Shown: positions 5,438 to 58,567 of the stretch, piece after piece | How positions within the stretch are numbered: position 1 is the stretch's first letter | How the letters are laid out: each line of letters opens with the position of its first letter | From: an uncultured Planctomycetia bacterium | Lineage (GTDB): Bacteria; Omnitrophota; Gorgyraeia; Tantalellales; Tantalellaceae | Assembly (NCBI GenBank): GCA_964409365.1 | Contig: CAYPCX010000007.1 | Location: forward strand, 18,655 to 82,654 | DNA: 64,000 nucleotides | Reading direction: 5' to 3' | Made by a program: the position numbers and the translations under genes | Notes under the pieces: generated by a model | The model's database searches: none | Told to the model about the DNA's origin: nothing | The model's input: the letters and a program-made list of their open reading frames with translations, nothing else

Positions 5438-5457
5438 ACAGCGGGGGACTTGAGGTT

Positions 5458-15693: not shown

Positions 15694-15703
15694 AAACCAT
15701 TTT

Positions 15704-20296: not shown

Positions 20297-21035
20297 GACC
20301 GCGCTTGTCGTGGACGCGGCGCCCGGTGTATACGAGAAGGTGTTAAGCCTGCTTGAAGGCGAGACTCCCGGCAGGGCGCTTGACGCCCCGGCGGGTGAAG
20401 GGGCGTTCAGCCTGGAACTGGCCGAACGAGGGTACGAGGTCAAAGCCGCGGACTTGAACCGGGAAAAGTTCAAAGCGGAAGGCATCGCCTGTGACCTGGT
20501 CGACCTGAACAAGACCCTTCCTTATGAAGACGCCTTTTTTGACGCGGTAATATGCATAGAAGGGATAGAGCACCTTGAGAACCCGCACCATCTGGTAAGG
20601 GAGTTCAGGAGGGTCCTTAAAAGCGGAGGCACGTTGATGCTGACGACGCCTAACATATTGAACGTATACTCCAGGTTGAGGTTCCTGCTGTTCGGCTCCG
20701 CCGACAGGCTTCACAGCGAGATGGACTCGTTCAAAGGCAACCTGTACCAGCTCTTGAGGAGGCACATAAACCCGGTGGGGTATCCCGAACTGAAATATAT
20801 CCTCGAGCAGAACGGGTTCGGGGTAGAGAAAATAGCGACCAACGCGAGCGTGGTCTCATACAGGGGAGGCAGGTTCGTCCTGAGGTTGTTCCTGCCCGCG
20901 GTATTCCTGATGCTGGGCGGCCTGGTCAGGCTGGTGGCCGGCAGTTTCAGGAAGAAAGATTCTTTATCGGGGGTATTGTATTCTCCTGAACTGCTTTACG
21001 GGGAAACGTTGATCCTGAAAACGAGGAAAAGGTGA
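20286..21035 (+). CDS. class I SAM-dependent methyltransferase
   Basis: ALDAPAGEGAFS motif I-like, ICIEGIEHLENP, LKSGGTLMLTTPN. Confidence 0.7.
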   Translation: MVDKTALVVDAAPGVYEKVLSLLEGETPGRALDAPAGEGAFSLELAERGYEVKAADLNREKFKAEGIACDLVDLNKTLPYEDAFFDAVICIEGIEHLENPHHLVREFRRVLKSGGTLMLTTPNILNVYSRLRFLLFGSADRLHSEMDSFKGNLYQLLRRHINPVGYPELKYILEQNGFGVEKIATNASVVSYRGGRFVLRLFLPAVFLMLGGLVRLVAGSFRKKDSLSGVLYSPELLYGETLILKTRKR

Positions 21036-29157: not shown

Positions 29158-29163
29158 AGGGCC

Positions 29164-30324
29164 ATGAAGCGGTATAAGATCTTACATGCGATAACGCGTT
29201 TAGATAAGGGCGGTTCCTCCGTGAACACGCTGCTCAGCGCTATCGGCCTCGCGGAAAAGGGATATGAAGTGGATCTTTTATCCGGCCGGACGATGGAACC
29301 GGATAATGATCTTATCGAACGGGCCGGGAGTTCGGGGGTGCGTTTTATTTACGAGGAACGCCTGGTCAGGGATATACATCCCGTAAAGGATATCACCGCG
29401 TTTTTCAGGGTGCTGGGCTTTCTGCGCAGGAACCGGTACGATATCGTGCACGCCCATTCGTCGAAAGCGGGGCTCATCTGCCGGATGGCCGCGAAATGCG
29501 CGGGAGTAAAAAATACAGTGTACACCCCCCATGGCCACGTGTTCTACGGGTATTTCGGCAGGGAACTTTCCCGGATGGTGGTCTTCGCCGAGGCGCTGCT
29601 GGCCCATATAACGGACAGGACGATCGGGCTTACTCCCGCCGAGTGTGACGAGTGGCTCCGTTTCGGGATAGGAAAAAAAGATATGTACGAAGCCATACCC
29701 AGCGGTATAGAGTTCGACCGGCTGGAACTCGAGGCGGAGAAAGGGAAAGACTGGAGGAAGGAGCTCGGGATCCCCCGGGAAGCCCCGTTTATCGGGTCCA
29801 CAGGCAGGTTCGCCGAGGTGAAAGGCTATAAATATTTTATAAGAGCGGCCGCGGAACAGGTAAAAAAACACCCGGATACACATTTTCTGCTGGCAGGCGA
29901 CGGGCCCCTCCGCGGTGAATTCGAAAAGATTATCAAAACCAGCGGGATCGAAAAGAATTTCCACATCATAGATTGGCAGGAGAACGCGGGGTCTGTTATA
30001 AAAGCGTTCGATGTTTTCGTGCTTTCCTCTCTTAACGAAGGGATGGGGAGGGCCCTGATAGAGGCGATGTTCCTCTGTAAGCCCGTTATAGCCACGCGTG
30101 TGGGAGGTGTGCCTTCGGTGGTATCGAAGGATACGGGGGCGCTTGTTGAGCCCGCCTCGTCTCAGGCCCTGGCGGCGGCCATGGACAGGCTGCTTAGTGA
30201 CCGGGGTAAACTGGAGGAGATGGGAAGGAAAGCCAGAGAGAGGGCGCTTGCCGGTTATTCGGCGGGCGAGATGGTGAACAGGCTTGACAAACTGTACAGG
30301 GAACTGTTAGAAAATAATAAGTAA
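29164..30324 (+). CDS. glycosyltransferase family 4
   Basis: SSLNEGMGRALIEAMFLCKPVIATRVGGVPSVV GT4 signature. Confidence 0.8.
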   Translation: MKRYKILHAITRLDKGGSSVNTLLSAIGLAEKGYEVDLLSGRTMEPDNDLIERAGSSGVRFIYEERLVRDIHPVKDITAFFRVLGFLRRNRYDIVHAHSSKAGLICRMAAKCAGVKNTVYTPHGHVFYGYFGRELSRMVVFAEALLAHITDRTIGLTPAECDEWLRFGIGKKDMYEAIPSGIEFDRLELEAEKGKDWRKELGIPREAPFIGSTGRFAEVKGYKYFIRAAAEQVKKHPDTHFLLAGDGPLRGEFEKIIKTSGIEKNFHIIDWQENAGSVIKAFDVFVLSSLNEGMGRALIEAMFLCKPVIATRVGGVPSVVSKDTGALVEPASSQALAAAMDRLLSDRGKLEEMGRKARERALAGYSAGEMVNRLDKLYRELLENNK

Positions 30325-30467
30325 CAAGGACAAAGGATAAAGGAAAAAGTAACAAGTAAGCAGGGTATAGGTGGATATTCGATGTGCTATATACGATATG
30401 CGAAATACGATATACTGGTTGCAAAACAAAAACCCTTAATTCTTAATACTTGATACTTTTTACTCGA
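30321..30467. repeat. 147-bp (21 x 7) heptamer-periodic degenerate array filling the intergenic spacer
   Basis: Read in register: gtaacaa ggacaaa ggataaa ggaaaaa gtaacaa gtaagca ... cccttaa ttcttaa tacttga tactttt tactcga. Contains the 17-mer aaggataaaggaaaaag, also present at 975-991. Confidence 0.8.
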
Positions 30468-30481
30468 AACGGATCGTTTAC

Positions 30482-31168
30482 ATGAAGATAGCTATACACC
30501 AGCCGCAGTATCTCCCATGGACGGGATATTTCGATAAGATGGACCGGGCGGACGTCTTTGTCCTTCTGGACGATGTCCAGTACAAGAAGAACGAGTGGCA
30601 GAACCGTAACCGCATCCGTAATGCCGAAGGCTGGCAATGGATCACGGTCCCCGTCCTGTACGAGTTCGGCCAGAAAATAAACGAGGTCAGGATCAATAAT
30701 AAAGAGAACTGGAGGGAGAAGCACCTTAAAAGTCTCGAGGTCAACTACTCCCAGGCCGCCCATTTTGATGAATATATCCTTTTTTTCAGGAAGCACTACG
30801 CTTGTGAATGGGAGAAGCTGGTCGATATAAACGTCCGTTTTATCGAATACCTGGCGGACACGATGGGTATAACGACGGAGATCGTGAGGAGTTCTTCGCT
30901 GGGCATAGGCACTGAAAAGACCCGGCGGCTGATCGATATATGCAAAGCGGTGGGTGCTGACGAGTACCTTTCCGGGGCGGGAGGGGGCGACTACCTCGAG
31001 GAAGAAAAGTTCGCCGGTGAAGGCATCAGGCTTGAATACCAGAAATATGAACAGAAACCCTATGAGCAGGTGTATAATGGATTTTGTCCGGACCTTTCGG
31101 CCGCGGACCTTTTATTCTGTTGCGGGAAAGACAGTATCAATATAATAAGGGAAGGGAGAAAAGAATGA
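30482..31168 (+). CDS. WbqC-like family protein
   Basis: MKIAIHQPQYLPWTGYFDKM...VLLDDVQYKKNEWQNRNRI is the hallmark WbqC-like N-terminus. Confidence 0.75.
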   Translation: MKIAIHQPQYLPWTGYFDKMDRADVFVLLDDVQYKKNEWQNRNRIRNAEGWQWITVPVLYEFGQKINEVRINNKENWREKHLKSLEVNYSQAAHFDEYILFFRKHYACEWEKLVDINVRFIEYLADTMGITTEIVRSSSLGIGTEKTRRLIDICKAVGADEYLSGAGGGDYLEEEKFAGEGIRLEYQKYEQKPYEQVYNGFCPDLSAADLLFCCGKDSINIIREGRKE

Positions 31169-31785
31169 ATATCCTCGCGATCGGCGCTCATCCTGACGAT
31201 ATAGAATACGGGTGCGGAGGCACGCTCCTGAAGATGTCTTCGCAGGAACAGGTACGCCTTTTCTATTTCATAGCGACCAAAGGGGAACTCAGCGGCGGGG
31301 CCAGCGTTAGAGAGAAAGAACAGGAAGAGGCCGCCCGCCTTCTGAAAGTGGAGAAGATATACTGGGGCGGCTTCAAGGACGCCAACTTTTCCGTCGGCAG
31401 GGACCTGATAGGCAAGCTTGAGGAAGTGATATCCGAGATACGCCCCGAGGTCATCTTCGTGAATTATCCCCAGGACACCCACCAGGACCACAGGTACCTG
31501 GCGGACTGCACCGTGGTAGCTTCCCGTTACTGCAAGAAAGTCGTTTATTACGAGGACTACACGTCCGTTAATTATGAACCCGATATCTTCGTTGACATAA
31601 GCGACGTCCTGGGGGAAAAGGTAAAGCTTCTCGAGTGCCACAAGTCGCAGATCGAAAGGGTGTACCCGACGGGGCTCGACATCGTGGAGAGCACAAGGGC
31701 CGTCGCGAGTTTCCGCGGGTTCCAGGCCAAGGTCAAATACGCCGAGGGCTTCAAGGCCCTGAGATATCTGCTGGATACAATATGA
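31165..31785 (+). CDS. PIG-L/LmbE family N-acetylglucosaminyl deacetylase
   Basis: ATG 31165 overlaps the previous stop (ATGA). ILAIGAHPDDIEYGCGGTL and later HQDH motifs. Confidence 0.8.
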   Translation: MNILAIGAHPDDIEYGCGGTLLKMSSQEQVRLFYFIATKGELSGGASVREKEQEEAARLLKVEKIYWGGFKDANFSVGRDLIGKLEEVISEIRPEVIFVNYPQDTHQDHRYLADCTVVASRYCKKVVYYEDYTSVNYEPDIFVDISDVLGEKVKLLECHKSQIERVYPTGLDIVESTRAVASFRGFQAKVKYAEGFKALRYLLDTI

Positions 31786-31800
31786 TGACAAGTTGCCTTG

Positions 31801-31877
31801 AAGAGAGAAGGGTGCTCCCGTACAGGGAGGATCCACACCGGGCGGAGGGGCCCTGGTAGGGAGCACCCTTCTCTCTT
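31801..31877. repeat. perfect 19-bp inverted repeat (aagagagaagggtgctccc / gggagcacccttctctctt) with a 39-nt loop, intergenic
   Basis: Read directly. Lies between the PIG-L stop (31785) and the DegT start (31901). No U-tract follows. Confidence 0.85.
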
Positions 31878-31900
31878 TAAGAGAACATGAAAGGCGAGGC

Positions 31901-32938
31901 ATGATCCCGCATTCAAGACCAACGCTGGGTGAGGAAGAGGCGCAGGCCGCAGCGGAGGTAATACGCTCGGGCCATATAGCCCAGGGAGAAAAGGTAAAAG
32001 AGTTCGAGGGGAAATTGGCGCGGTTCATCGGCGTGAAAGGCGCGGTATGCGTCAATTCCGGCACATCCGCCCTGCATCTGGGCCTTATTGCCATGGGGAT
32101 CGGTCCCGAAGATATCGTGCTCCTTCCTTCGTTCGTCTGCAGCGCTCCGCTGAACGCCATATACCATACGCTGGCCGAGCCCCGTCTTTGCGACATAGAA
32201 CCCGAAAGCTTCAATATCTCCCTGGAAAGCGTAGAAGATAACAGGACTGAGGAGACAAAAGCTGTAATAGTCCCCCATATGTTCGGGGCTCCGGCGGATC
32301 TGCAGAAAATAGAGGAGACAGGCATCCCCGTGATAGAAGATTGCGCTCATTCCGTCGGCGCCGCCTACGGCGACAGAAAAGTCGGCAGTGTGGGACGTTT
32401 CAGCATACTGTCTTTTTATGCCAACAAGATGCTGGCATGCGGCGAGGGAGGGGCGCTCCTTTCCGATGACGAGGAGATACTTTCCAGGGCGAGGGACCTC
32501 AGGGATTATGACGAAAAAGAAGCGTACAGGGTCCGTTACAATTACAAGATGACCGACATACAGGCGGCAGTGGGCCTGGTACAGCTTGAGAAGCTCCCCG
32601 GGATGATAGAGAAAAGGAAGGGAATAGCCTCCCGTTATAACGAGGCTTTCAAGGATCTGGACGTCGTATTGCCTAAGGCGGAGTTCGACCATGTATATTA
32701 CAGGTACGTTATCAGGACCGGTAAGGACGTACAGGACATTATCAGGGCCGGGCAGGAAAAAGGGGTGACTTTTGCCAGGCCCGTATATAGACCCTTACAC
32801 CGCTATCTTGAGCTCAGGTCAGGTTTCCGTAATGCCGACGAGGCCTATTCTTCGGCTTTATCCATTCCTATCTACCCGTCCCTCAGCGGGGAAGAGCAGG
32901 AAAAGGTCATCGATGCGGTCCACCTGCTTTCCAAATGA
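31901..32938 (+). CDS. DegT/DnrJ/EryC1/StrS family PLP-dependent sugar aminotransferase
   Basis: Full-length fold-type I aminotransferase, EFEGKLARFIG, SFYANKMLACGEGGALLSDDEE (PLP Lys region). Confidence 0.85.
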   Translation: MIPHSRPTLGEEEAQAAAEVIRSGHIAQGEKVKEFEGKLARFIGVKGAVCVNSGTSALHLGLIAMGIGPEDIVLLPSFVCSAPLNAIYHTLAEPRLCDIEPESFNISLESVEDNRTEETKAVIVPHMFGAPADLQKIEETGIPVIEDCAHSVGAAYGDRKVGSVGRFSILSFYANKMLACGEGGALLSDDEEILSRARDLRDYDEKEAYRVRYNYKMTDIQAAVGLVQLEKLPGMIEKRKGIASRYNEAFKDLDVVLPKAEFDHVYYRYVIRTGKDVQDIIRAGQEKGVTFARPVYRPLHRYLELRSGFRNADEAYSSALSIPIYPSLSGEEQEKVIDAVHLLSK

Positions 32939-32995
32939 AATCATATTTGTTATAATAATCATACAGCGGATATATGTTAAATTTCTCATATTGCC

Positions 32996-33772
32996 ATGAA
33001 ACGATCCCAGGAACTCAGACTTGACGCTAAGAACAAAAAGCTTTTCTTCGGAAGTGGGAACTGTGATGAAGTGCGCCATCTGTGCGAGGCGATATGCTGC
33101 AGGACGTATGACGTGAACATCAGCGAAGAAGAATACCGCTCCGGCAGATACAAGGCCAGACCGACGTGCAGATTGACCGGGAGGGATTGCGAAAGCAAAG
33201 ATTCGAATTGCATCAACAGAGAGTTCTGGATGTATAGGAAGGCAGATAGATCCTGCGTCTATCTAACCGGAGACAATAAATGCTCTATATATGAATGGAG
33301 ACCGGAAGCGTGCAGGGAGTTTCATTGCGTGGACGGGTGGGTAATATCCCATGCATGCCTTTCAACGAACAAGGAAAGCGTAAAGGCGCGAAAGGACATT
33401 CTTGACGAACATATACTTAAAATAATGAAAGATGACATGAAGTTCAGTCCTAACCCTCTCGTCCGGCCCAAAGCGTTGTTCTATTCAAAAGATAAAAAAG
33501 AAATACACTTTGCGATAGATATCGCGAATAAATGCGGCCTGTCGACCTCCCGCCGCGAAGCCGTCACCTCGGCGCTTGATGGGAATATGCTGTTGGAACT
33601 TTTTGGTCTTTTTGACGGGAATAGAGATCTGGGATCCGTCAGAAAGGAGTTTAACGACAGGTTCGGCCAAGTATTGTCCAGAGAGGACCTTTACCGTATT
33701 GTATGGCTTTTCAATACCGAGAAATTGATAGTTTTCACGCATTGTGCGCTGGTGTTCGGAGATAAGCAGTGA
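32996..33772 (+). CDS. fusion protein: N-terminal YkgJ-like Cys-rich zinc/iron-chelating domain plus C-terminal PqqD-like (RiPP recognition element-like) domain
   Basis: N-terminal half has 14 Cys including CEAICC and CSIYEWRPEACREFHC (compare YkgJ CxxCxxCC ... C.IYE.RP..CR.F). C-terminal 90 aa (HFAIDIANKCGLSTSRREAVTSALDGNMLLELFGLFDGNRDLGSVRKEFNDRF...EDLYRIVWLFNTEKLIV) follow the PqqD pattern. Confidence 0.6.
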   Translation: MKRSQELRLDAKNKKLFFGSGNCDEVRHLCEAICCRTYDVNISEEEYRSGRYKARPTCRLTGRDCESKDSNCINREFWMYRKADRSCVYLTGDNKCSIYEWRPEACREFHCVDGWVISHACLSTNKESVKARKDILDEHILKIMKDDMKFSPNPLVRPKALFYSKDKKEIHFAIDIANKCGLSTSRREAVTSALDGNMLLELFGLFDGNRDLGSVRKEFNDRFGQVLSREDLYRIVWLFNTEKLIVFTHCALVFGDKQ

Positions 33773-34872
33773 TCTCTAAGATGATACCTTTTCCCACTAC
33801 TGTAGACCTGGCTCTTACCGGCAGGTGCAATCTGAGATGCAAACATTGCAACGCTTCCGATGCCTGGGAGTTGGAGAGCGAACTGTCTTTTGATGAGATA
33901 ATAGGGGTTCTCGATCAGATCAGGAAGGAGAAGGTCTTCAATCTGAACCTTTTTGGAGGAGAGCCGTTCTGTTATCCTGAGATCCACGAGATCCTGGAAG
34001 CGCTCAACAGTTATCCGATAAGGATCACTATCCTCACCAACGGCACGCTTATTGACAAGAAAGCCGTTGAGTCGGTCAAAAAGATGAGGTTCCTGGCCGC
34101 TGTACAGGTGAGCGTTGATGGTTCGAACCCTTCCGTGCATGACTGGCAAAGAGGAGAGGGATCGTTCGACAAGGCAATGAACGGGGTCAGGCTGCTCATG
34201 GAAGAGGGCTTGCCGGTGAACTTAAAGGCCATTATCAACAGGCACAATATCGATGATATGGAGAATATGATCCGTATGGCAATGGGCCTGGGCCTCGGCG
34301 GCATGGATTTCGGTGATGCCGTAGAGTGCGGCAGGGCCGCGGTATACGCTAACGAACTTGTTTTCGAAGGCGAGACGCACCGGAAGATGATGGAGACCAT
34401 GTTCCGTCTGAAAAAAAAGTATCCGCGCTTTAACCTGGGCGGGACGCTGGGGCAAAAGGTAAGTATGCTCTGTGACTTTTACGCGAATGGCCGGGGTAAG
34501 GGCGCCAGGGGGACGTTTTCAACCTGCCCCGCGGGATTCAGCATGCTTTCGATACGGTCCGACGGGAAGGTGGTCCCTTGTTCCGCTTTCTGGACGCTTG
34601 TCTGCGGTGATCTTGGAGAACGGTCCCTGAAGGATATATGGGAGAATTCGCAGGTCCTGAACGAGATACGGGCCCTTGCGGATGAGGCTCTTGATAAATA
34701 TAAGAAAGAATGCGCTGATTGCGATTATCTCACCTACTGTAACGGGGGATGCCGGGCGGCCGCTTATTATTCCGCCGGGGGGGATTTAAGAGGCATCAAT
34801 ATGTCGACCTGTCTCGTATTTTCGGATCTGTACGGTTTCAGGGTGGAAAAGGATACCGCTTTATCGGCTTAG
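33769..34872 (+). CDS. radical SAM/SPASM domain peptide-maturase-like enzyme 1
   Basis: GTG 33769 with ggagat SD; overlaps the upstream stop. CNLRCKHC (CX3CX2C), LFGGEPF. C-terminal SPASM cysteines (CPAGF...CSAF...CADCDYLTYCNGGCRAAAY). Confidence 0.8.
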   Translation: MISKMIPFPTTVDLALTGRCNLRCKHCNASDAWELESELSFDEIIGVLDQIRKEKVFNLNLFGGEPFCYPEIHEILEALNSYPIRITILTNGTLIDKKAVESVKKMRFLAAVQVSVDGSNPSVHDWQRGEGSFDKAMNGVRLLMEEGLPVNLKAIINRHNIDDMENMIRMAMGLGLGGMDFGDAVECGRAAVYANELVFEGETHRKMMETMFRLKKKYPRFNLGGTLGQKVSMLCDFYANGRGKGARGTFSTCPAGFSMLSIRSDGKVVPCSAFWTLVCGDLGERSLKDIWENSQVLNEIRALADEALDKYKKECADCDYLTYCNGGCRAAAYYSAGGDLRGINMSTCLVFSDLYGFRVEKDTALSA

Positions 34873-34885
34873 GACCGGGTTCACT

Positions 34886-36016
34886 ATGAGCATGTGTAAT
34901 GAAAAAACAACAGGAAATGTCGCGCCGGAAGGCGACTTGACCAGCCTGTATATCAACCCTACCAGATACTGTAACCTTAAGTGCAGGCATTGCTGGATAT
35001 CTCCGCCGCAGAAAGAAGAACTGGACGGAAAGGGCGGAGAACTGTCGACCGGGGAGATCACAGGGATCATAAAAGAAGCGAAGGGACTGGGACTTAGGGA
35101 CGTCAAGTTCACCGGTGGAGAGCCGCTTTTACGGAAGGATATTACGGAACTTTTGAGGTTCTGCTATGAAGAAGAGGTAAAAACTTCCATAGAGACCAAC
35201 GGCACTTTGATCGACAAAGAGCTGGCTTCAGCCATGAAAAGATACGGGGTGTCTTTCATAGCGGTGAGCCTCGACAGCTACCGGGAAGAACTGAACGACC
35301 GTTTCAGGGGGCGCAAGGGAGCGTTCAAAAAGGCATTGGCGGGCATCAGGGCGCTGATCGACGAGGGCATCAGGCCGCAGGTGATTATGAGCATGTACAG
35401 GGAGAATTTCACCGACCTGCCCGAGTTCCTGAAGATGATGCAGGATCTGTGGGTCAATAATATCAAGCTGAACACTATAACGCCTCTGGGAAGGGGGGCC
35501 TCGCTTTATGATACAGGTGAGATACCCTCGGTCAGGGAGATACTCGAGTTTTTGGAAAGGCTCGGCAGTATCAGAAGGTCGTTCAAAGGCCGGTTATACC
35601 TGGACGTTCCTATAGCTTTCAAAAGTGTCGAGGAAATACACGCGGGCTGTGGGGTGTGTCACATCAAGAATATCCTCGGCATATTGTCGGACGGGAGTGT
35701 CTCTATCTGCGGGATAGGCCATCTTGAGGAGGAATTGCTTTTCGGGTCGGTCAGAGAAGATCCATCCGCATTGAAGTACATCTGGCGCGAAAATACCGTC
35801 CTTAAAAAGATCAAAGAGGAAATACCTTACAAGTTGAAAGGGGTCTGCAGCATCTGTGTTTTCAGGAACAAGTGCCTGGGGTACTGCAGGGCCGAAATAT
35901 ATCATAACACCGGGGATCTTTTCGCGCCGTACTGGTTTTGCCAGGAAGCTTATGACAAGGGGCTTTTTCCTCCAACCAGGCTTGTGCCGGAACCTTTGAG
36001 AGCGGGATATGGATAG
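34886..36016 (+). CDS. radical SAM/SPASM domain peptide-maturase-like enzyme 2
   Basis: CNLKCRHC, FTGGEPL. SPASM cysteines (CGVCHIKN...CGIG...CSICVFRNKCLGYCRAE). Confidence 0.8.
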   Translation: MSMCNEKTTGNVAPEGDLTSLYINPTRYCNLKCRHCWISPPQKEELDGKGGELSTGEITGIIKEAKGLGLRDVKFTGGEPLLRKDITELLRFCYEEEVKTSIETNGTLIDKELASAMKRYGVSFIAVSLDSYREELNDRFRGRKGAFKKALAGIRALIDEGIRPQVIMSMYRENFTDLPEFLKMMQDLWVNNIKLNTITPLGRGASLYDTGEIPSVREILEFLERLGSIRRSFKGRLYLDVPIAFKSVEEIHAGCGVCHIKNILGILSDGSVSICGIGHLEEELLFGSVREDPSALKYIWRENTVLKKIKEEIPYKLKGVCSICVFRNKCLGYCRAEIYHNTGDLFAPYWFCQEAYDKGLFPPTRLVPEPLRAGYG

Positions 36017-36815
36017 CATTTCTTATAGTGCTTTCAGGACAACCATACGTCTTAATTTCCTTAATTTTGAAGAAAGACCGGAATTATTCAAGCCGTCCGA
36101 TTCGCGGGGGGAAGGAAAAGCAGATCTGGATATTTACCTGTACAGGGGCAAGCGCAAGGAGATATCCCGCAAAGCGGAGAGAAGCCGTTTTCCGGTCAGC
36201 GCGGAGACGTTCGAAGGCAAGAAGGTCATCCGGCTTTACGACGGTAAGAGCAAAAGGGTCTTCTGTTTTTTTGAGGAAGGCCTGCTCATCGATCTGGTGA
36301 CGAACAGAGCGCTCAACCTTCCCCTGATGGACCTTCAGAACGTTCTGGACATTGTTTTCATGCATTCCGCTTCGATAGTGATGAACGGCAAGGCGTACCT
36401 TTTTATAGCTCCGAGCGGGGGCGGGAAAAGCACGATAGCCGCTCTGGCCCGGGATGAGGGTTTTTTTGTGATAGACGATGATTTCTGCGCGGTGAAAAGG
36501 TCCGGCGGGAGCTTTTTCGCGGCGCGTTTTCCGTGTTTTCTGTCGAAACGAAAAAGATTTAAAGAATGGGAAGTGGGTGGGCTTTTTCTTCTGAACAAGT
36601 CAAAAGAGAACAAGGTAAGGCCCGTTTCGGGCATCGAAGCGTTGCGCGATGCACTGCCCGAAGCGGTCCGTTATCCCCGTGAGAGAGTAGGCGCCATGCG
36701 GAACCAAGATTATCTCAGGGATGTTTTTTGTTTCCTGGACGAGATGATAGATCGTGTAGGGTTGAGCGTTCTTGATTTCAAGAAGGAAGCAGGTGTTTTC
36801 TCGTGTCTGGTCTAA
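36009..36815 (+). CDS. HPr kinase/phosphorylase C-terminal-domain-like P-loop protein (HprK-related kinase)
   Basis: HSASIVMNGKAYLFIAPSGGGKSTIAA matches the HprK C-domain P-loop region (HG..V...G.G.L..G.SG.GKS). 268 aa, no N-terminal HprK domain. Confidence 0.6.
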   Translation: MDSISYSAFRTTIRLNFLNFEERPELFKPSDSRGEGKADLDIYLYRGKRKEISRKAERSRFPVSAETFEGKKVIRLYDGKSKRVFCFFEEGLLIDLVTNRALNLPLMDLQNVLDIVFMHSASIVMNGKAYLFIAPSGGGKSTIAALARDEGFFVIDDDFCAVKRSGGSFFAARFPCFLSKRKRFKEWEVGGLFLLNKSKENKVRPVSGIEALRDALPEAVRYPRERVGAMRNQDYLRDVFCFLDEMIDRVGLSVLDFKKEAGVFSCLV

Positions 36816-38548
36816 GCTTTTTCGACGGCATTTTCGCTTCGAGGCGTCTTGTTTTACTTGAAGACCTGAAGGGTGTCCTGTCTTATGCGTCTGGCATACT
36901 TAAGAAAGACCGCTTTTCCCTGGCAATGGCCTCTTTCCTGAAGCTTTTAAGTTTCCCGCTGGGTATATCGATAGTCTACATAACGAAAGAGACCTTGGAT
37001 AAAGGTATAATGTCTAAGGACCTGAGGTCGTTCGGGTTCTTCACTGCGCTGGGCCTTTTCGTTTTTCTTCTCATGAGAGTGCTGCTGTACTTTTCGGGGA
37101 GGATCATGAACAGCGTGAAGACAAAGTTTTCCCTTGCGGTGGATCATGACCTTGCCAGGAGGCTTTTCGGTCTTGATTATCTGAAGATAAGACAACTGAG
37201 CTCCGCTGAGAACGCTTTTTACGTGAGTTACGATTGCGGTATCATCGAGAACCTGGTATTCTACGAGCTTCCCGCTCTTTTATCCTTTGTGAAAATACCC
37301 GTTTTCTTTATCCTCGCGGCGCTTTTGTCCTGGCAGTTGAGCCTATTCGTGTTTCTGGCTGTCCCGTTCGCTGTAATGCATACTATCTGGGCGTCGCGAA
37401 AGAGGCGGAGATTGAGATCGGGGTATGTGAAATCAGCGGGCAAGTCCAACGCGCTTTTTAGTGACTTCCTGATCAACGTTAAGCTTATCAAGAGCTTTTT
37501 TAAGGAAAGCTGGGCCGTTGACAGGATCATGAGACGGTTCCGGAGAAAGGCCAGGATAGACCTTTTATCTTCCCGTTTCAGGCAGGTCGAGAGATTTGTA
37601 TACGATATTTTTTCAAAATCCAGCACGGCAGCATTCTGGCTGCTGGGAGGGTATTTAATAATAACCGGCAAGTTAAGTCTTGGATCTTTCAGTGCCGTAA
37701 GCATGTATTCCGCGATGCTGTTATCAGAAGTATACAACCTGGGGTCCATTGTACGGAACCTGAACGAGGAGGGGCCTTCTATACACAGGAGTGCGCAATT
37801 TATAAGGGACATTACCGGGCCGGCTGAAGATGTTCCCGCGGTGCCGGTATCTGGCAAGTCGTTTTTTGGTGGAGATATCGAGTTCAGGGATATCGCGTTC
37901 GGATATAGTAAAGAAAAGCCTCTTTTCCAGGGACTGAACATGCTGGCGCCCGCGAGAAAGTGGACGTTGATAAAAGGTCCTTCCGGCGTCGGCAAGACAA
38001 CGCTTCTAAGTTTGATGATCAGGCTCTTCAGGTCCTGGCGCGGCGGGATCTATATCGGGGGGACGAATATCTTTGATGTGGACATTGGCCGCTTTTCCGG
38101 ATACGTTTCATGCGTGCATCAGGAATCGTATATATTCAATGACACCATCTTTAACAATGTACTTTTGGGTGATAAGAAGCCGGGCGGTCTCGTCAGGGAG
38201 GTCATGCGATTGACAAGGCTTGACGAGCTTGCCGATGACCTTTCTATCGGCTATAATACCAAGATAGGCGAACTTGGCGCAACCCTTTCAGGGGGGCAGA
38301 AGCAGCGGGTCGCGATCGCGAGAGCACTTATAAGAGAACCGAAGGTGCTTATACTGGACGAAGCGACTTCGTTTCTTGACGCCAGGATGGAAAGTGATAT
38401 TTTGAGCGACATAAAGGAACAGTTTTCCGGGCTCACGGTCCTGTATGTCACTCACAGGGAGACCGCGGACAGGTTCGCCGATGTTATCTTTGAACTTAAA
38501 GAGGAAAGGGTCGGATATGGAAGAGAAATGTCCTGTAAGAAATCCTGA
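36803..38548 (+). CDS. ABC transporter, fused permease/ATPase (exporter type, no peptidase domain)
   Basis: N-terminal 6-TM exporter domain. NBD with Walker A GPSGVGKTT, signature LSGGQKQRVAIARAL, Walker B ILDEATS. Confidence 0.85.
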   Translation: MSGLSFFDGIFASRRLVLLEDLKGVLSYASGILKKDRFSLAMASFLKLLSFPLGISIVYITKETLDKGIMSKDLRSFGFFTALGLFVFLLMRVLLYFSGRIMNSVKTKFSLAVDHDLARRLFGLDYLKIRQLSSAENAFYVSYDCGIIENLVFYELPALLSFVKIPVFFILAALLSWQLSLFVFLAVPFAVMHTIWASRKRRRLRSGYVKSAGKSNALFSDFLINVKLIKSFFKESWAVDRIMRRFRRKARIDLLSSRFRQVERFVYDIFSKSSTAAFWLLGGYLIITGKLSLGSFSAVSMYSAMLLSEVYNLGSIVRNLNEEGPSIHRSAQFIRDITGPAEDVPAVPVSGKSFFGGDIEFRDIAFGYSKEKPLFQGLNMLAPARKWTLIKGPSGVGKTTLLSLMIRLFRSWRGGIYIGGTNIFDVDIGRFSGYVSCVHQESYIFNDTIFNNVLLGDKKPGGLVREVMRLTRLDELADDLSIGYNTKIGELGATLSGGQKQRVAIARALIREPKVLILDEATSFLDARMESDILSDIKEQFSGLTVLYVTHRETADRFADVIFELKEERVGYGREMSCKKS

Positions 38549-38789
38549 TATCGTGGCGCGAAGGGAGAAGAAAGAAGCGCTTCTTTTCAATCCCGCTGAT
38601 GGCCACATGCTGTGTATTAACGGTACCGGTATGTTCGTCTGGGACCTGTGTGACGGGTCAAGTTCGGGGGACGATATTGTCGAAAAAATAGCGAATGTTT
38701 ATGAAATTACTTGCGAAAAAGCGACCGAAGATTATGATCGCTTCATAAAGGATATGGAGAAAGCCGGATTTATAGGATACAGAACCTGA
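38517..38789 (+). CDS. PqqD family protein (stand-alone RiPP recognition element-like peptide chaperone)
   Basis: ATG 38517 lies within the end of the ABC gene. NPDIVARREKKEALLFNPADGHMLCINGTGMFVWDLCDGSSSGDDIVEKIANVYEI...ATEDYDRFIKDMEKAGFIG matches the PqqD pattern closely. Confidence 0.7.
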   Translation: MEEKCPVRNPDIVARREKKEALLFNPADGHMLCINGTGMFVWDLCDGSSSGDDIVEKIANVYEITCEKATEDYDRFIKDMEKAGFIGYRT

Positions 38790-38799
38790 AGGGGGCCGT

Positions 38800-39096
38800 A
38801 TGAAGAAGAAAAAGAAGAAGTACACTCCTCCTCTTGTCCATGACCTGAGCGGTACGACTATCAGGGGGGCCCAGGCGTTCAATTGCAAAAGCGGCGCCGA
38901 AGCCGGACAGCTTTGTGATTTCGGCGCTGTGGCCGGTGGACAATGCAATACCGGAAGGGTGGCTACGCTCGGATGCTCTGCCGGCGCTGAATACGTCCCG
39001 ATGCCGAAACAATGCAGACCCGGGTTCATGGCTACCCAGCAGTGCCGTGACGGCACGTCGGCTCAGGGCACGTGTAAGACGGGATTCGGCTTTTAG
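38800..39096 (+). CDS. candidate RiPP precursor peptide: 98-aa Cys-rich peptide with a hexa-lysine N-terminus and seven tandem C-x-x-G decapeptide repeats
   Basis: gggggc RBS 6 nt upstream. MKKKKKKYTPPLVHDLSGTTIRGAQA then FNCKSGAEAGQL CDFGAVAGGQ CNTGRVATLG CSAGAEYVPMPKQ CRPGFMATQQ CRDGTSAQGT CKTGFGF. Eight Cys; every repeat starts C-x-x-G. Sits between the PqqD and peptidase genes. Confidence 0.55.
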   Translation: MKKKKKKYTPPLVHDLSGTTIRGAQAFNCKSGAEAGQLCDFGAVAGGQCNTGRVATLGCSAGAEYVPMPKQCRPGFMATQQCRDGTSAQGTCKTGFGF

Positions 39097-39119
39097 CCAA
39101 AGGTCTTATTTTCCCTGAT

Positions 39120-39848
39120 ATGCGCAGGATCGTGTACGGCCAGAGCATGATGCCATTTCTCAGGATGCTGGATGAATGCGTCTGCAAAAGTATAGACCCT
39201 CTTCAGATAAGTGCAGGAGATATAGTAACCTACCGCATACCCGATTGTGGTGCCACTGCCATTCACCGGGTCCTATATGTGAACAAGGAAGAAAAACATA
39301 TTGTAGCCAAGGGCGACAATATTCTTTCTGTCCCCGGTGACATAGTGCCTTTTTCGGAGGTGAAGGAAAAGGTGGTAACTGTTAAAAGGGGGGACAGGGT
39401 CTTTGATCTGGATACTTTTCCCCGCAGACGGGCGAACGCTCTTATCGCGTTCCTTTCCCGTCATAACCTGACGCCGTTTTTGGTCAAAAGGAGATTCCTT
39501 TCGCCGGTATTATTGAGTATTTCAAGAAAAAAGATCTACAAAGATGCGAGGAAGAGATATTATAAAAAGCTCTTTTTCACGTCCTATAGAAGCGGGGAGG
39601 GCCTTCGCTTTTTTGCTTTCGTGGGCAAGACAAAGAGCGCGGATGCCCTGATAAAAGAAAAGTCTGGATGCGGCGTGATAGTGAGCGCGCGTATCAGGCA
39701 CAGGGACAGGAACGAAGAGTTCGCCCGCGTATTCCTTGACAAGATCATAGAAGCGGCGGACAGGCAGTATGGCTCGGAGCATGATATCCATATAACCGAT
39801 GATACTTTCGAGGACCTTTTTTTGACTCCCACCGAATATAATGCATAA
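39120..39848 (+). CDS. Sec11/SipW-type (Ser-His dyad, ER/archaeal-type) signal peptidase I homolog with about 120-aa C-terminal extension
   Basis: YGQSMMPFL (catalytic Ser box), GDIVTYRI, AIHRVLYV (HRV His box as in SipW/Sec11 rather than bacterial KR), KGDN. The C-terminal 120 aa have no recognisable family. Confidence 0.55.
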   Translation: MRRIVYGQSMMPFLRMLDECVCKSIDPLQISAGDIVTYRIPDCGATAIHRVLYVNKEEKHIVAKGDNILSVPGDIVPFSEVKEKVVTVKRGDRVFDLDTFPRRRANALIAFLSRHNLTPFLVKRRFLSPVLLSISRKKIYKDARKRYYKKLFFTSYRSGEGLRFFAFVGKTKSADALIKEKSGCGVIVSARIRHRDRNEEFARVFLDKIIEAADRQYGSEHDIHITDDTFEDLFLTPTEYNA

Positions 39849-40983
39849 CATAGAACTTTTCCCGGCTTTGGGTTTCGATCTTTCCGCTTTAAGCGATGAA
39901 AAAAAGCTCATCGTCCTTTTTTCCAGGACGGATCTTGATGATGATATCCGGACGCAGGCGGAGTCCATACTTCACCCGGATAAAGTGGACTGGGACCGTT
40001 TCCTTGAGCTTGCCAACGTAAATCAGGTAACCTCTCTTTTTTACAGGTCCATTCAGCGGGTCGACGGCATTCCCGAAAAGGTGCTGGCCCGTTTGAGGGA
40101 ATGGTCGGCCGATATCTTCGCTTATAACATTAGGAACTTTGACGCCGCGAGGAGGCTTTCGGAACTTTTCCGCGAGGAAGAGATGGAGATCATTTTCACG
40201 AAGGGGCTTCCGTATCTCATTGATATATATGAAGATATGGGGCTCAGGGAGATGGCGGACGTCGATATTTTAGTGAAGCCGGAGGATATTCGCAAGGTGG
40301 ACATGCTGCTGGAAGGCGAAGGGTTCGCTCCTTTCGAAGAAAAGGAAGGGCTTGACGATTACAGGGCCCAGAAACTGTATTTTCGGGGTGACGGGATACA
40401 CCTGGACGTGCACAGGGGTTTTGTCGGGCGCATGCTGCACAACAGGGTCTTGGGAATAGATCCGGAAAAGGCCTGGGAGAATAAAAGAGAGCTCAGAAGG
40501 GACGATGTCCGCATTGATACACTTGACCTCACTCATACGCTTGTTTACCAGTGCCTGCACCTTTCCATGCAGCACAGTTTTTCCGGGATAAGGTGGTACG
40601 TCGACATCAATGAGTTCGTGAGAAAGTATGAGAAAGAGATCGATTGGGACAGGCTGGTCGACGCCGCGGGGGAGTACAGGATCAGGAAGCCCGTTTATTA
40701 TTCGCTTCTTTTTACGAAGGACATGTTCGATGCTCCCGTGCCCGGCCGGGTCATGAAAGAACTGAGCGGGGCAACGGGCAGGTGGGACCGGTGGTTCTTC
40801 CGCCGGATAAAGGCGAACGCGACGGGCGTGGATTATCTCGCGGAACTGGCGATGTTCGACAACTGCCTGGATGCCGCAAAGTTCATCATGCTGAGTTTCG
40901 TGTTTTATCCTCGCCGGATATTGCATTTTTTCGGGATATCAGGCAGTATATTTAAGGCATTACTATGGAAAAAGAAAAGTTGA
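39841..40983 (+). CDS. nucleotidyltransferase family protein (uncharacterised nucleotidyltransferase, NTP_transf_5-like)
   Basis: 380 aa. ADVDILVKPEDIRKVDMLLEGEGF (GS/D..D nucleotidyltransferase core context). Same length and architecture as the NTP_transf_5 proteins seen in lasso-peptide and PqqD-containing clusters. Confidence 0.55.
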   Translation: MHNIELFPALGFDLSALSDEKKLIVLFSRTDLDDDIRTQAESILHPDKVDWDRFLELANVNQVTSLFYRSIQRVDGIPEKVLARLREWSADIFAYNIRNFDAARRLSELFREEEMEIIFTKGLPYLIDIYEDMGLREMADVDILVKPEDIRKVDMLLEGEGFAPFEEKEGLDDYRAQKLYFRGDGIHLDVHRGFVGRMLHNRVLGIDPEKAWENKRELRRDDVRIDTLDLTHTLVYQCLHLSMQHSFSGIRWYVDINEFVRKYEKEIDWDRLVDAAGEYRIRKPVYYSLLFTKDMFDAPVPGRVMKELSGATGRWDRWFFRRIKANATGVDYLAELAMFDNCLDAAKFIMLSFVFYPRRILHFFGISGSIFKALLWKKKS

Positions 40984-41504
40984 GAGAGGTCTGGTGGACT
41001 ATAGCCGCGGCGTATGTCCTGGTTATCTATTCCACCCTTACGGTCGCGCCGAGTATATGGGAAAGTATCGATGTTTTCTTCGGCGGCAAGGCCATAATTG
41101 TCCTGTATTCTCTTTACTTCATAGCTGTCGTTTCTGTTCTGTATTATCTCATCCATGTAAAAAGAGAAATGTTCATTCTGACCTATATACTTTTTTTCCT
41201 TTTCATCGCTATCCTGTTCATGCTGACGAAGCTCGTAAAGAGTCCCGCGGAAAAGATACACTTGGCCGAGTACGCGATATTGGGAGTCATTTTATACAAC
41301 GCTTTAAAGGTGGATCTCGATGTTTACGGCGGAAAGCTTTATTTGTACGGTTCTCTCATCTGCGTTTTAGCGGGTTTTGGCGACGAAATAATACAGAAGT
41401 TCCTCCCCGGCAGGTTCTTCGGGTGGAAAGACGTCACCGTTAACGCCGTCAGTGGTATAATAGCCCTGCTTATGATCAGGTTCGTTGTCCTGAAAAAAAG
41501 TTAG
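40965..41504 (+). CDS. VanZ-like family membrane protein
   Basis: Four TM helices and the GFGDEIIQKFLPGRFFGWKDV motif typical of VanZ-like proteins. Overlaps the upstream gene by 19 nt. Confidence 0.6.
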   Translation: MEKEKLREVWWTIAAAYVLVIYSTLTVAPSIWESIDVFFGGKAIIVLYSLYFIAVVSVLYYLIHVKREMFILTYILFFLFIAILFMLTKLVKSPAEKIHLAEYAILGVILYNALKVDLDVYGGKLYLYGSLICVLAGFGDEIIQKFLPGRFFGWKDVTVNAVSGIIALLMIRFVVLKKS

Positions 41505-41525
41505 AAAAATATCCCTCAAAATTCT

Positions 41526-41554
41526 TTACAAGTTGTAAAGCTAAGTGATAAAAT
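41526..41554 (+). promoter_or_regulatory. putative sigma70 promoter overlapped by a 17-bp perfect palindrome (CTTTACAAGTTGTAAAG, 41524-41540)
   Basis: TTTACA at 41526-41531, 17-nt spacer, TAAAAT at 41549-41554. The palindrome covers the -35 element. 45 nt upstream of the receiver gene. Confidence 0.35.
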
Positions 41555-41598
41555 AAGTAACGCCGCTCGACGGTCGGTGACAGGGAAAGAAGAGCATA

Positions 41599-41955
41599 AT
41601 GCCGGAACATAGAAGAGTAGTAATAGCAGACGATAACAGGGAGATATGCGAACTGATCTCGGATGTCCTCGGACATTCGGGATACAACGTAGATACGGTA
41701 TATAACGGTTATGAGCTTTTGTCCTATCTGGAGAATAACAACCCTTCCATAATAATACTTGATCTGATGATGCCGGAGAAGACCGGCCTTTCTATCCTCA
41801 GCACGCTCAAACAGGTATCCCCTTATGCCCGTATCATCATCTATACGGGTTACCAGGAATATGAGAACAGCGTCTACGCCAGGACGGCGGACAGGTTCCT
41901 TGTGAAGGGCGGGAGCATGGAGGACCTGATCCAGGCCGTGCAGGACCTGACCTGA
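41599..41955 (+). CDS. single-domain response regulator (CheY-like receiver)
   Basis: RVVIADDNREI...IIILDLMMPEKTGLSIL...FLVKG receiver signature, 118 aa. Confidence 0.8.
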   Translation: MPEHRRVVIADDNREICELISDVLGHSGYNVDTVYNGYELLSYLENNNPSIIILDLMMPEKTGLSILSTLKQVSPYARIIIYTGYQEYENSVYARTADRFLVKGGSMEDLIQAVQDLT

Positions 41956-43080
<1,125 letters not shown>

Positions 43081-43108
43081 TATCCAACATCTAAGATCTA
43101 ACATCTGA
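43081..43108. repeat. heptamer-periodic degenerate repeats (tatccaa catctaa gatctaa catctga)
   Basis: Read directly. Reverse complement resembles the gatgttagat units at 46741-46790. Confidence 0.6.
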
Positions 43109-43135
43109 CTTGTCGTTCTCTTCTTATATACACTG

Positions 43136-43163
43136 TTGCAATTTCAGCGAATTTTAGTATACT
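43136..43163 (+). promoter_or_regulatory. putative sigma70 promoter for yajC-secDF
   Basis: TTGCAA at 43136-43141, 16-nt spacer, TATACT at 43158-43163. ggaagga RBS before the ATG at 43222. Confidence 0.35.
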
Positions 43164-43221
43164 TATACATATCTTATCTTGATTTACCTGCCAAAATAAC
43201 ATACTGAGGAAGGAGCATTAC

Positions 43222-43551
43222 ATGTTAACATTAGCATTTGCCCAGGAACAGGCTGCACAGGCTGGAACGGGAGCGGTCAGGGCCAACCCGATAATGGGCC
43301 TCATGCCGATATTCCTGATATTCATCATTTTCTATTTCCTGCTCATACGTCCGCAGAAGAAGACGCAGCAGGACCATGCCAAGATGCTCGGGGCCCTCCA
43401 GAAGAACGACGAGGTCGTCACTTCGGGCGGCATACACGGTACGATCGTCAATATCCAGGATGATGTGGTGACGCTGCGCATAGATGACAATACGAGGGTA
43501 AAGATACAGAAGGCGTCGATAGCCAGGCTCAAAAAGACCAAATCAGAATAG
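43222..43551 (+). CDS. yajC: preprotein translocase subunit YajC
   Basis: 109 aa, single TM (LMPIFLIFIIFYFLLIRPQKK) and VVTSGGIHGTIV motif. Position between tgt and secD. Confidence 0.85.
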   Translation: MLTLAFAQEQAAQAGTGAVRANPIMGLMPIFLIFIIFYFLLIRPQKKTQQDHAKMLGALQKNDEVVTSGGIHGTIVNIQDDVVTLRIDDNTRVKIQKASIARLKKTKSE

Positions 43552-58377: not shown

Positions 58378-58502
58378 GTACTTGTTGTTGTCGTTCTTTT
58401 ATGAGGTGACAAAGGTAAACCTGCCGAGAGGCAGGGACACAAAGCCACGGGTGCTTTTGTCCGGGCATTACTTCAGGAATATCGGACAGAAAGTAACGCA
58501 TA

Positions 58503-58567
58503 GCCGGGCTGCCGGATCGTTCATAACGCGGAAACGCGCGTTATATCGAAAAGCAGCCCGGTTTTTT
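58503..58567 (+). terminator. terminator-like/attenuator-like nested hairpin with U6 tract inside the 5' leader of the RHS gene
   Basis: Outer stem ccgggctgc/gcagcccgg encloses inner stem ataacgcg/cgcgttat, followed by tttttt at 58562-58567. Ends 52 nt before the ATG at 58620. Confidence 0.45.

Follow-up and report, generated by a model that had tools for sequence, protein, structure and literature searches.

What does the ten-gene cassette at positions 32996 to 41504 of this DNA encode, and does its combination of genes belong to a known system? The window, i.e., the whole 64,000-nucleotide stretch from an uncultured bacterium of the Omnitrophota family Tantalellaceae (contig CAYPCX010000007.1), contains at this place ten open reading frames (ORFs), which an earlier note had interpreted as a radical S-adenosylmethionine (SAM) cassette for a ribosomally made peptide that is modified after its translation (RiPP), in a combination that it did not recognise as known. 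All ten ORFs are present on the plus strand as listed in that note, with overlaps at 33769, 36009, 36803, 38517, 39841, and 40965 and with gaps of 10 and 23 nt flanking the ORF for a 98-amino-acid (aa) peptide. The RiPP reading also holds, as the cassette combines a Cys-repeat precursor and two SPASM maturases with PqqD, an HprK-like protein, a peptidase, an NTP_transf_5 protein, an ATP-binding cassette (ABC) exporter, and a VanZ protein. Judged by these families, the region is a SynChlorMet (Scm)-type cassette; as none of the Scm models reaches its curated cut-off, it represents a distant Omnitrophota branch. It probably forms a divergent Scm-type operon of the Omnitrophota that directs the production of a ribosomally made, post-translationally modified, and exported peptide. 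The ten genes are as follows.

32996 to 33772, plus strand: gene 1, fusion of a Cys-cluster domain with a RiPP recognition element (RRE)/PqqD-like domain
33769 to 34872, plus strand: gene 2, ScmE-like radical SAM/SPASM maturase (TIGR04250; Pfam Radical_SAM and SPASM)
34886 to 36016, plus strand: gene 3, ScmF-like radical SAM/SPASM maturase (TIGR04251; Pfam)
36009 to 36815, plus strand: gene 4, ScmC-like HprK-related P-loop protein, putative peptide kinase (profiles; PF27840)
36803 to 38548, plus strand: gene 5, ABC exporter with fused permease and ATPase (Pfam)
38517 to 38789, plus strand: gene 6, ScmD-like stand-alone PqqD, predicted leader-recognition element (Pfam; TIGR04248)
38800 to 39096, plus strand: gene 7, 98-aa precursor peptide, a distant, expanded ScmA (TIGR04252; synteny; ratio of nonsynonymous to synonymous substitution rates, dN/dS)
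39120 to 39848, plus strand: gene 8, soluble Sec11/SipW-type (Ser-His) peptidase, putative leader peptidase (profile)
39841 to 40983, plus strand: gene 9, NTP_transf_5 nucleotidyltransferase-fold protein, putative tailoring enzyme (Pfam PF14907)
40965 to 41504, plus strand: gene 10, VanZ-like membrane protein (NCBIfam vanZ_1)

The curated NCBIfam cut-offs are 400 bits for ScmE and for ScmF, 100 bits for ScmD, 125 bits for ScmC (TIGR04249), and 35 bits for ScmA. The best NCBIfam match of gene 2 is the ScmE model TIGR04250 (219.2 bits, E value of 7.4e-65), followed by WgkB with 162 bits, and the best match of gene 3 is the ScmF model TIGR04251 (319.3 bits, E value of 3.8e-95), with the next one at 153 bits. 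Gene 6 has its best NCBIfam match in ScmD (TIGR04248; 46.9 bits) and passes the Pfam cut-off for PqqD with 59.3 bits. For the precursor, the ScmA model TIGR04252 is the sole match in the NCBIfam library, obtained at a relaxed threshold (12.8 bits, E value of 0.1). Gene 4 scores 22.6 bits with HprK_rel_A and 20.1 bits with ScmC, both far under their cut-offs; the record of this protein includes a precomputed match to the Pfam ScmC family PF27840, which is unmarked and so has an E value of at most 1e-5, and an iterated profile connects it to canonical ScmC. SynChlorMet models lead the NCBIfam matches of four core genes out of five and come close behind the best one for the ScmC-like gene, so that the combination can no longer be regarded as undescribed. 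The five Scm-type genes lie together on one strand within 33769 to 39096, and the same is seen in related loci. The match to the SynChlorMet cassette is one of kind and not a full one: besides the low scores, the gene order is different, and gene 1 and the VanZ gene are clade-specific. Most of the earlier domain calls pass family cut-offs, which in Pfam are those of Radical_SAM and SPASM (twice), PqqD, ABC_membrane and ABC_tran, NTP_transf_5, and CxxCxxCC and in NCBIfam that of VanZ; the HprK-like and Sec11-type calls needed profiles and were borne out by them.

Other known families account for the core genes less well. The earlier note had named sulfatase maturases and cofactor-biosynthesis enzymes as the alternative, which is not upheld, as anSME, PqqE, MftC, and heme enzymes all score far below ScmE and ScmF and below their own cut-offs. 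For the ScmE-like protein, PqqE reaches 114.5 bits (cut-off, 381), MftC 123.8 bits (cut-off, 265), and the anaerobic sulfatase-maturating enzyme anSME 77.6 bits (cut-off, 349); all three were rejected on score, as were NirJ/Ahb and the heme enzymes, which remain much below ScmE and ScmF. The GeoRSP system was likewise rejected, both for the two radical SAM proteins (TIGR04303; 123.9 and 125.9 bits, cut-off of 400) and for the PqqD gene (TIGR04302; 36.8 bits, cut-off of 100). The HPr-rel-A system fails with 22.6 bits for the HprK-related kinase A model TIGR04352 (cut-off, 200), and no HPr-rel-A PqqD model is found among the NCBIfam matches of the PqqD gene.

Because nearly the whole window reads on the plus strand, the co-directionality of the cassette is uninformative. 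All ORFs of at least 180 aa that are not nested in a longer plus-strand ORF are on this strand, except for 60849 to 61892, and the GC skew is positive in every 2-kb bin. The signal beyond chance is the conservation of the cassette across lineages. The same ten genes are found in the same order in the Omnitrophota lineages L086, L088, and L089 (L numbers denote the loci compared), with 37 to 76% amino acid identity. In all three, the cassette is flanked by glycosyltransferase, WbqC, PIG-L, and DegT genes upstream and by a response regulator and tgt downstream; in L086 and L088, tgt is followed by yajC-secD.

Among anaerobes, both bacterial and archaeal, Scm cassettes occur widely: at least 590 ScmF relatives were detected when species-representative genomes were scanned by pattern. 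The best 80 loci, which were analysed, span Deltaproteobacteria, Chloroflexota, Nitrospirae, Aminicenantes, Chlorobium, Lentisphaerota, Bacteroidetes, methanogens, and others. Components were counted with iterated profiles of the window proteins, and the counts are lower bounds, as many loci are cut by contig ends; tblastn by itself under-counts ScmC, the peptidase, and the precursor relative to these profiles. ScmE is found in 69 of the 80 loci, PqqD in 66, ScmC in 59, a small syntenic ORF for a repeat precursor and the peptidase in 51 each, the ABC exporter in 43, and NTP_transf_5 in 37, so that the features that had seemed odd (peptidase, nucleotidyltransferase, and repeat precursor) are normal for the family. 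VanZ is found in one locus and gene 1 in none. By these counts, ScmD, ScmE, ScmF, precursor, ScmC, Sec11-like peptidase, ABC exporter, and NTP_transf_5 make up a conserved eight-gene module, and gene 1 and VanZ appear confined to this clade of Omnitrophota. The complete set of eight is present in 18 of the 80 loci, in bacteria and in archaea, and the usual order is D-E-F-precursor-C-peptidase-ABC-NT. Gene fusions join the module proteins, which argues for their functional linkage. The peptidase is fused with NTP_transf_5 four times (L056, L089, L014, and L038), in L089 as a single 621-aa protein that is present in two independent assemblies, and with ScmC in L032 and L061; PqqD is fused with ScmC in L081 and with ScmE in L068 and L071.

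The precursor consists of a Lys-rich leader that contains KYTPPLVHDL, followed by seven C-x2-G-x2-A repeats, and ends in GFGF. Its cysteines are at positions 29, 39, 49, 59, 72, 82, and 92, with Gly at +3 in all seven repeats and Ala at +6 in five of them. A good Shine-Dalgarno sequence, AGGGGG, precedes the start. Comparison with two orthologues gives dN/dS values of 0.20 to 0.25; the ORF is under purifying selection, and the family is real. In a set of 90 family members, chosen with the leader Pro as the anchor (hence its 100% conservation), a basic N terminus is followed by Tyr (94%)-Glu-x-Pro-x-[LVI]-x-Asp-Leu, and the distance from Tyr to the first Cys is 18 to 22 residues. In the repeats of this set, Gly is found at +3 in 90% and Ala or Pro at +6 in 70%; the sequence is highly variable apart from C, G, and A. 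The number of Cys residues per precursor ranges from 2 to 15, mostly 5 to 7, and their spacing is exactly 10 in 212 of the 429 intervals, 11 in 83, and 9 in 39. Since Gly at +3 and Ala at +6 hold whatever the spacing, insertions fall after +6, and the constant unit is the C..G..A heptad.

Database searches recover more such peptides. Among 1.8 billion representatives, HMMER finds 24 matches, for the most part similarly built peptides of 57 to 149 aa (largely 90 to 105 aa), and a profile search of 5.8 billion proteins gave 39, all of them hypothetical or unnamed and with no Pfam domain. Two long repeat proteins from the HMMER scan, P0122 and P0128, resemble unrelated repeats that contain Cys and were discounted. 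The leader and the C-x2-G-x2-A design are shared with peptides encoded beside canonical cassettes, which are also below the ScmA cut-off. The precursor lacks a hydrophobic core like that of signal peptides and hence does not qualify as a Sec signal peptide. In Omnitrophota precursors, [A/V]-x-A is retained on the N-terminal side of the first Cys, at a distance of two residues; in the window peptide it reads A24-Q-A26. Several cassettes encode multiple precursors: five in tandem in a Bacteroidetes metagenome-assembled genome (MAG) and three each in MAGs of Nitrospirae and Aminicenantes (L029, 8308 to 9508; L019, 2524 to 7462; L056, 11131 to 17457, for the three loci). The short precursors of such cassettes have two or three Cys residues only.

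Both radical SAM proteins have an intact CxxxCxxC motif and intact SPASM cysteines. The motif consists of C20, C24, and C27 in the ScmE-like protein; in the ScmF-like protein, C29, C33, and C36 are invariant, along with seven Cys residues of the SPASM region. The nearest homologues of the latter (50 to 71% identity) were found in metagenomes and in MAGs of "Candidatus Omnitrophota", and homologues with 40 to 44% identity carry the Joint Genome Institute name ScmF. Neither SPASM enzyme has an N-terminal recognition domain. In L016 (3244 to 4725), a B12-binding radical SAM protein is encoded between two PqqD genes, upstream of ScmF, at the usual position of ScmE.

For gene 1, only eight homologues were found, of which six are full-length and restricted to the Omnitrophota clade. 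Its N-terminal half contains eleven invariant Cys residues and barely reaches the cut-off of the YkgJ-type CxxCxxCC family (23.3 versus 23 bits). Of the two domains proposed earlier, this Pfam domain is confirmed, and the PqqD-like part finds support only at the level of the fold. A hidden Markov model (HMM) of PqqD built from the loci does not match gene 1 significantly, and hhalign aligns its C-terminal half with the ScmD alignment weakly (15% probability). A domain-only AlphaFold model of this half (predicted local distance difference test score of 72) shows three strands followed by three helices. On this mixed evidence, an RRE-like fold is moderately supported.

A second PqqD gene is present in many distant loci, so that it is reasonable to suppose a recognition element of its own for each radical SAM enzyme; the ScmE-like ORF starts within gene 1, overlapping its stop by 4 bp. 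Examples of second PqqD-like proteins are found in L011 (9278 to 9691), L013 (13129 to 13635), L015 (123 to 527), L025 (2219 to 2617), and L052 (9254 to 9673). Their N-terminal extensions, e.g., RRSFLGAFLKLLFF and RRRFLQSLGWLASGALLA, resemble twin-arginine or membrane-anchor signals, which would put the leader-binding domain outside the cytoplasm.

The ScmC-like protein is a putative peptide kinase by its sequence features. Its alignment retains H119, the P-loop GK(S/T) with G139, K140, and T142, and D157, and its profile finds HPr kinase structures with an E value of about 1e-4. The active site of HprK likewise has a His ahead of the P-loop and an Asp behind it, which H119 and D157 would match.

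The peptidase scores 37.3 bits with TIGR02228, below the cut-off of 51.85. Its family alignment has G7, S9, M10, P12, G33, D34, H49, R50, and D66 as invariant residues, with G65 and N67 nearly so, and the profile aligns with human SEC11C and SEC11A (E value of 1e-14) across the SM-P, HRV, and GDN boxes. These catalytic boxes and the alignment confirm the Ser-His signal peptidase call of the earlier note. The catalytic fold is, on this evidence, of the S26B (Sec11, SipW) type, and the protein does not appear to be a classical membrane signal peptidase: there is no membrane anchor, as no 19-residue window reaches a mean hydropathy of 1.6. Cleavage would be cytoplasmic, since the precursor lacks a signal-peptide core and the peptidase lacks an anchor. 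The protein also has an extra C-terminal domain of ~130 aa.

NTP_transf_5 matches PF14907 with 175 bits. On the metagenome contig L001, which is otherwise identical to the window, positions 14956 to 15975 encode a 339-aa form, as opposed to the 380-aa form at 39841 to 40983 of the window (89% identity in the matching part), a difference that points to a variant of the population with an in-frame deletion. The exporter contains ABC_membrane (residues 45 to 307) and ABC_tran (residues 376 to 523) according to Pfam and no C39 peptidase domain; all its NCBIfam matches are under the cut-off. The VanZ-like protein passes the cut-off of 20 with vanZ_1 (40.1 bits) and is below that of Pfam VanZ (26.7 versus 30.1 bits). 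It has four hydrophobic segments and possibly serves in immunity or as an accessory to export.

In the mechanism that we infer, each chemical step is drawn from the protein families and from the lasso-peptide precedent. ScmD would bind the leader at Y8-x-x-P11-x-[LVI]-x-D-L, and the RRE-like domain of gene 1 probably binds it as well. Each of the seven repeats would then be a substrate of ScmE and ScmF, the likeliest product being an intra-repeat thioether between the Cys sulfur and a carbon of a residue inside the C..G..A heptad; the partner is placed in the heptad because insertions occur only after +6. The Cys-cluster domain of gene 1 may bind an Fe-S cluster or Zn and could supply electrons. 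By analogy with the kinase/nucleotidyltransferase pairs of lasso peptides, ScmC may phosphorylate the peptide, and NTP_transf_5 may add a further group, possibly by glycosylation. The soluble Sec11-type peptidase would cut off the leader, plausibly after the small-x-small sequence A24-Q-A26 before the first Cys. Type I signal peptidases follow a -3/-1 small-residue rule, which [A/V]-x-A fits, hence the proposed cleavage after A26. The ABC transporter would export the product, and VanZ possibly takes part in self-protection.

Several points weigh against an Scm-type operon for a modified and exported peptide. All five Scm models fall short of their curated cut-offs, and no product or enzyme activity of an Scm cassette was found in the searchable literature, which does not include subscription-only papers. 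The need for two radical SAM enzymes is unexplained. Characterised ranthipeptides have an Asp, Asn, or Thr acceptor, and no such residue is conserved in the repeats. Lasso-peptide kinases target a C-terminal Ser; the precursor ends in GFGF, and the C termini of the family vary. Finally, the cassette resides in a conserved chromosomal synteny beside housekeeping and polysaccharide genes, which is less typical of an antibiotic cluster.

This neighbourhood bears on a related reading, in which the cross-linked repeats are phosphorylated, glycosylated with sugars of the adjacent amino-sugar genes, and delivered as a peptide conjugate to a polysaccharide or lipopolysaccharide-like layer of the envelope. 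The cassette directly follows WbqC, PIG-L, and DegT within the same polysaccharide island in four Omnitrophota lineages. In the distant Omnitrophota locus L006, it adjoins PIG-L, a PF00953 glycosyltransferase, and WbqC in another arrangement, and in L016, assigned to Desulfobacteraceae, co-directional WbqC, PIG-L, and DegT genes adjoin PqqD and ScmF-type genes. In addition, VanZ is a membrane protein, and a related lasso nucleotidyltransferase has been linked to the glycosylation of phosphoserine (PMC8498205). However, WbqC and PIG-L are neighbours in only 2 of the 80 distant loci (the same L006 and L016), with weak DegT-like matches in 2 more, so that the link is not general; the synteny of close relatives can reflect inheritance instead of function; L016, a contig of 6.5 kb, belongs to a co-assembly bin and may have been mis-binned; and a promoter-like site separates DegT from gene 1. 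An envelope conjugate is thus unlikely. We would give just as little credence to the bolder version, in which Scm cassettes, this one among them, encode an as yet uncharacterised RiPP class whose radical SAM pair would cross-link each C-x2-G-x2-A decapeptide in a manner unlike that of sactionine or ranthionine formation; the peptide would be phospho-glycosylated by the HprK-like kinase and the NTP_transf_5 enzyme, in Omnitrophota with a sugar from the WbqC/PIG-L/DegT genes, to yield an envelope peptide-glycan conjugate and not an antibiotic.

WbqC and PIG-L are found beside Scm-type cassettes in three arrangements (window, 30482 to 32938; L006, 17412 to 19705; L016, 528 to 2911), with DegT accompanying them in the window clade and in L016. 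This adjacency may reflect a functional link through amino sugars, shared ancestry of the island, or mis-binning. A PF00953 (WecA/MraY-type) glycosyltransferase gene is close to an AAA_22 ATPase gene both in the polysaccharide island of the window (4364 to 6270, adjacent) and next to the L006 cassette (17978 to 20523, with WbqC between them).

A peptide-derived redox cofactor or other small molecule, as in the pyrroloquinoline quinone (PQQ) and mycofactocin pathways, would have each repeat cross-linked and then excised. The core enzymes are PqqE/PqqD-like, with PqqE and MftC among the significant matches and PqqE one of only three solved relatives by sequence; moreover, the cassette is vertically inherited among housekeeping genes, and the conserved module includes a peptidase. 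However, PqqE and MftC stay at 114 and 124 bits (cut-offs of 381 and 265), far below ScmE and ScmF; Pfam and NCBIfam searches detect no PqqB/C or MftD/E/F-type genes among the ten proteins; a dedicated ABC exporter is found in 43 of the 80 loci; and a repeat number of 2 to 15, with a sequence that is highly variable apart from C, G, and A, is more in keeping with a variable secreted peptide than with a fixed cofactor. A cofactor is therefore very unlikely. Least probable is a thiol-based metal binder (a metallophore or a metallothionein-like peptide, with the cysteines free or converted to other sulfur ligands and the radical SAM enzymes forming no thioethers), as seven regularly spaced cysteines in an otherwise featureless Gly/Ser/Ala-rich peptide, repeats with no conserved acceptor residue, and a Cys-cluster metal-binding protein as the first gene of the operon have to be set against the fact that characterised SPASM maturases of Cys-rich precursors (AlbA, PapB, and StsB, all among the matches) form thioethers and that no metal transporter or metal-responsive regulator is detected in the cassette by Pfam and NCBIfam.

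The boundaries and context of the Scm-type cassette are as follows. Metagenome contigs in public data that are identical to the window have the same gene boundaries. For gene 6, the longest ORF starts at 38445, and the public gene calls give the 90-aa form starting at 38517. The 57-bp gap between DegT and gene 1 contains a promoter-like site:

32928 to 32956, plus strand: possible cassette promoter, TTTCCA, 17-nt spacer, extended TG-TATAAT (consensus match only)

Its score of 10/12 is the joint top in 28500 to 43500, where 19 sigma-70-like sites were found versus 14.1 expected; another promoter-like site is located 3' of the VanZ gene. These sites are weak evidence that 32996 to 41504 is a single transcription unit. 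No other copies of cassette genes are found elsewhere in the 64-kb window. As a co-directional stretch, the window as a whole (1 to 64000) is unusually long. At 18030 to 19097 (plus strand), the polysaccharide island encodes a third radical SAM/SPASM protein, between a GT1 glycosyltransferase and a GT9 heptosyltransferase, and no PqqD or peptide gene was detected near it. Further downstream, at 58405 to 58517 (plus strand), there is a c-di-GMP-I-GGC riboswitch aptamer (Rfam RF03167; 66.2 bits versus a gathering score of 59), which sits in a lower-GC stretch with no ORF of at least 180 aa.

Cassettes of the Scm kind are already known: their families are defined in NCBIfam/TIGRFAM, with no publication on them and no product in the literature that could be searched. 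A literature search for ranthipeptides in Omnitrophota returned only general surveys of biosynthetic gene clusters. Judging from the sequence comparisons, the new features of this cassette are the rearranged order, a precursor twice the length of the ScmA model, two clade-specific genes, and scores that are all sub-threshold. The analysis further assigns to Scm a general precursor family, publicly "hypothetical", with a conserved leader and 2 to 15 C-x2-G-x2-A repeats. It also places the soluble Sec11-type peptidase, the ABC exporter, and NTP_transf_5 in the conserved Scm module, backed by fusions, and ties this module to the tailoring pair of kinase and nucleotidyltransferase known from lasso peptides. 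The cassette is a well-defined target in the search for a peptide chemotype, possibly a new one, of an uncultured phylum and not a categorically new system.

Among the known systems, the PQQ and mycofactocin pathways (PqqD/PqqE and MftB/MftC) share with the cassette a PqqD-type chaperone and a SPASM radical SAM enzyme acting on a small ribosomal peptide. The cassette differs in that their models score below threshold and the other pathway genes are absent; it has an exporter and a multi-repeat precursor.

Sactipeptide and ranthipeptide systems (AlbA/subtilosin, PapB/freyrasin, StsB, and SCIFF maturases) also combine radical SAM/SPASM enzymes, RRE-dependent recognition, and a Cys-rich precursor, and in PapA a short Cys motif is repeated several times. 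StsB (130 bits; cut-off, 625), AlbA (95 bits; cut-off, 850), and PapB (93 bits; cut-off, 340) are among the significant matches, all of them under the cut-off. The bioinformatic prerequisites of a thioether system are present (SPASM maturases, RRE, and Cys-rich core), the thioether itself being a prediction. In contrast to these systems, the cassette has two maturases instead of one, stand-alone RREs, and a C-x2-G-x2-A motif with no acidic or amide acceptor, and its module of kinase, nucleotidyltransferase, and Sec11-like peptidase is absent from them.

Like lasso-peptide leaders, the Scm-type leader has a Y-x-x-P motif. Those lasso systems of Firmicutes that include an HprK-like kinase and a nucleotidyltransferase (paeninodin, pseudomycoidin) also have a PqqD-type leader-recognition protein, a leader peptidase, and an ABC exporter. 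In such clusters, an HPr-kinase homologue phosphorylates the precursor, and hexoses are attached to the phosphate by the nucleotidyltransferase, which in some cases forms one protein with the leader protease (PMC8498205). Nucleotidyltransferase-leader peptidase fusions are thus found in both systems. However, Pfam and NCBIfam searches of the ten proteins find neither an asparagine-synthetase-like cyclase (C) nor a transglutaminase-type B2 protease, and lasso-type PqqD models match weakly (26 and 24.8 bits). The class-defining enzymes of the cassette are two radical SAM/SPASM proteins, its peptidase is of the Sec11/SipW type, and its precursor has no conserved C-terminal Ser.

The closest counterpart is the canonical Scm cassette, in which genes for a pair of PqqE-like radical SAM/SPASM proteins stand together with those for a homologue of PqqD, for an HprK-like protein, and for a short precursor with Cys repeats. 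Canonical loci also have the peptidase (e.g., L057 from Chlorobium, with an ScmC score of 309 bits), and most of them have the ABC exporter and NTP_transf_5. Compared with these loci, the cassette of the window has the order X1-E-F-C-ABC-D-pre-Pep-NT-VanZ in place of the usual one; its precursor has 98 aa and seven repeats, as opposed to the 49 positions of the ScmA model; and it adds the Cys-cluster/RRE fusion and VanZ.

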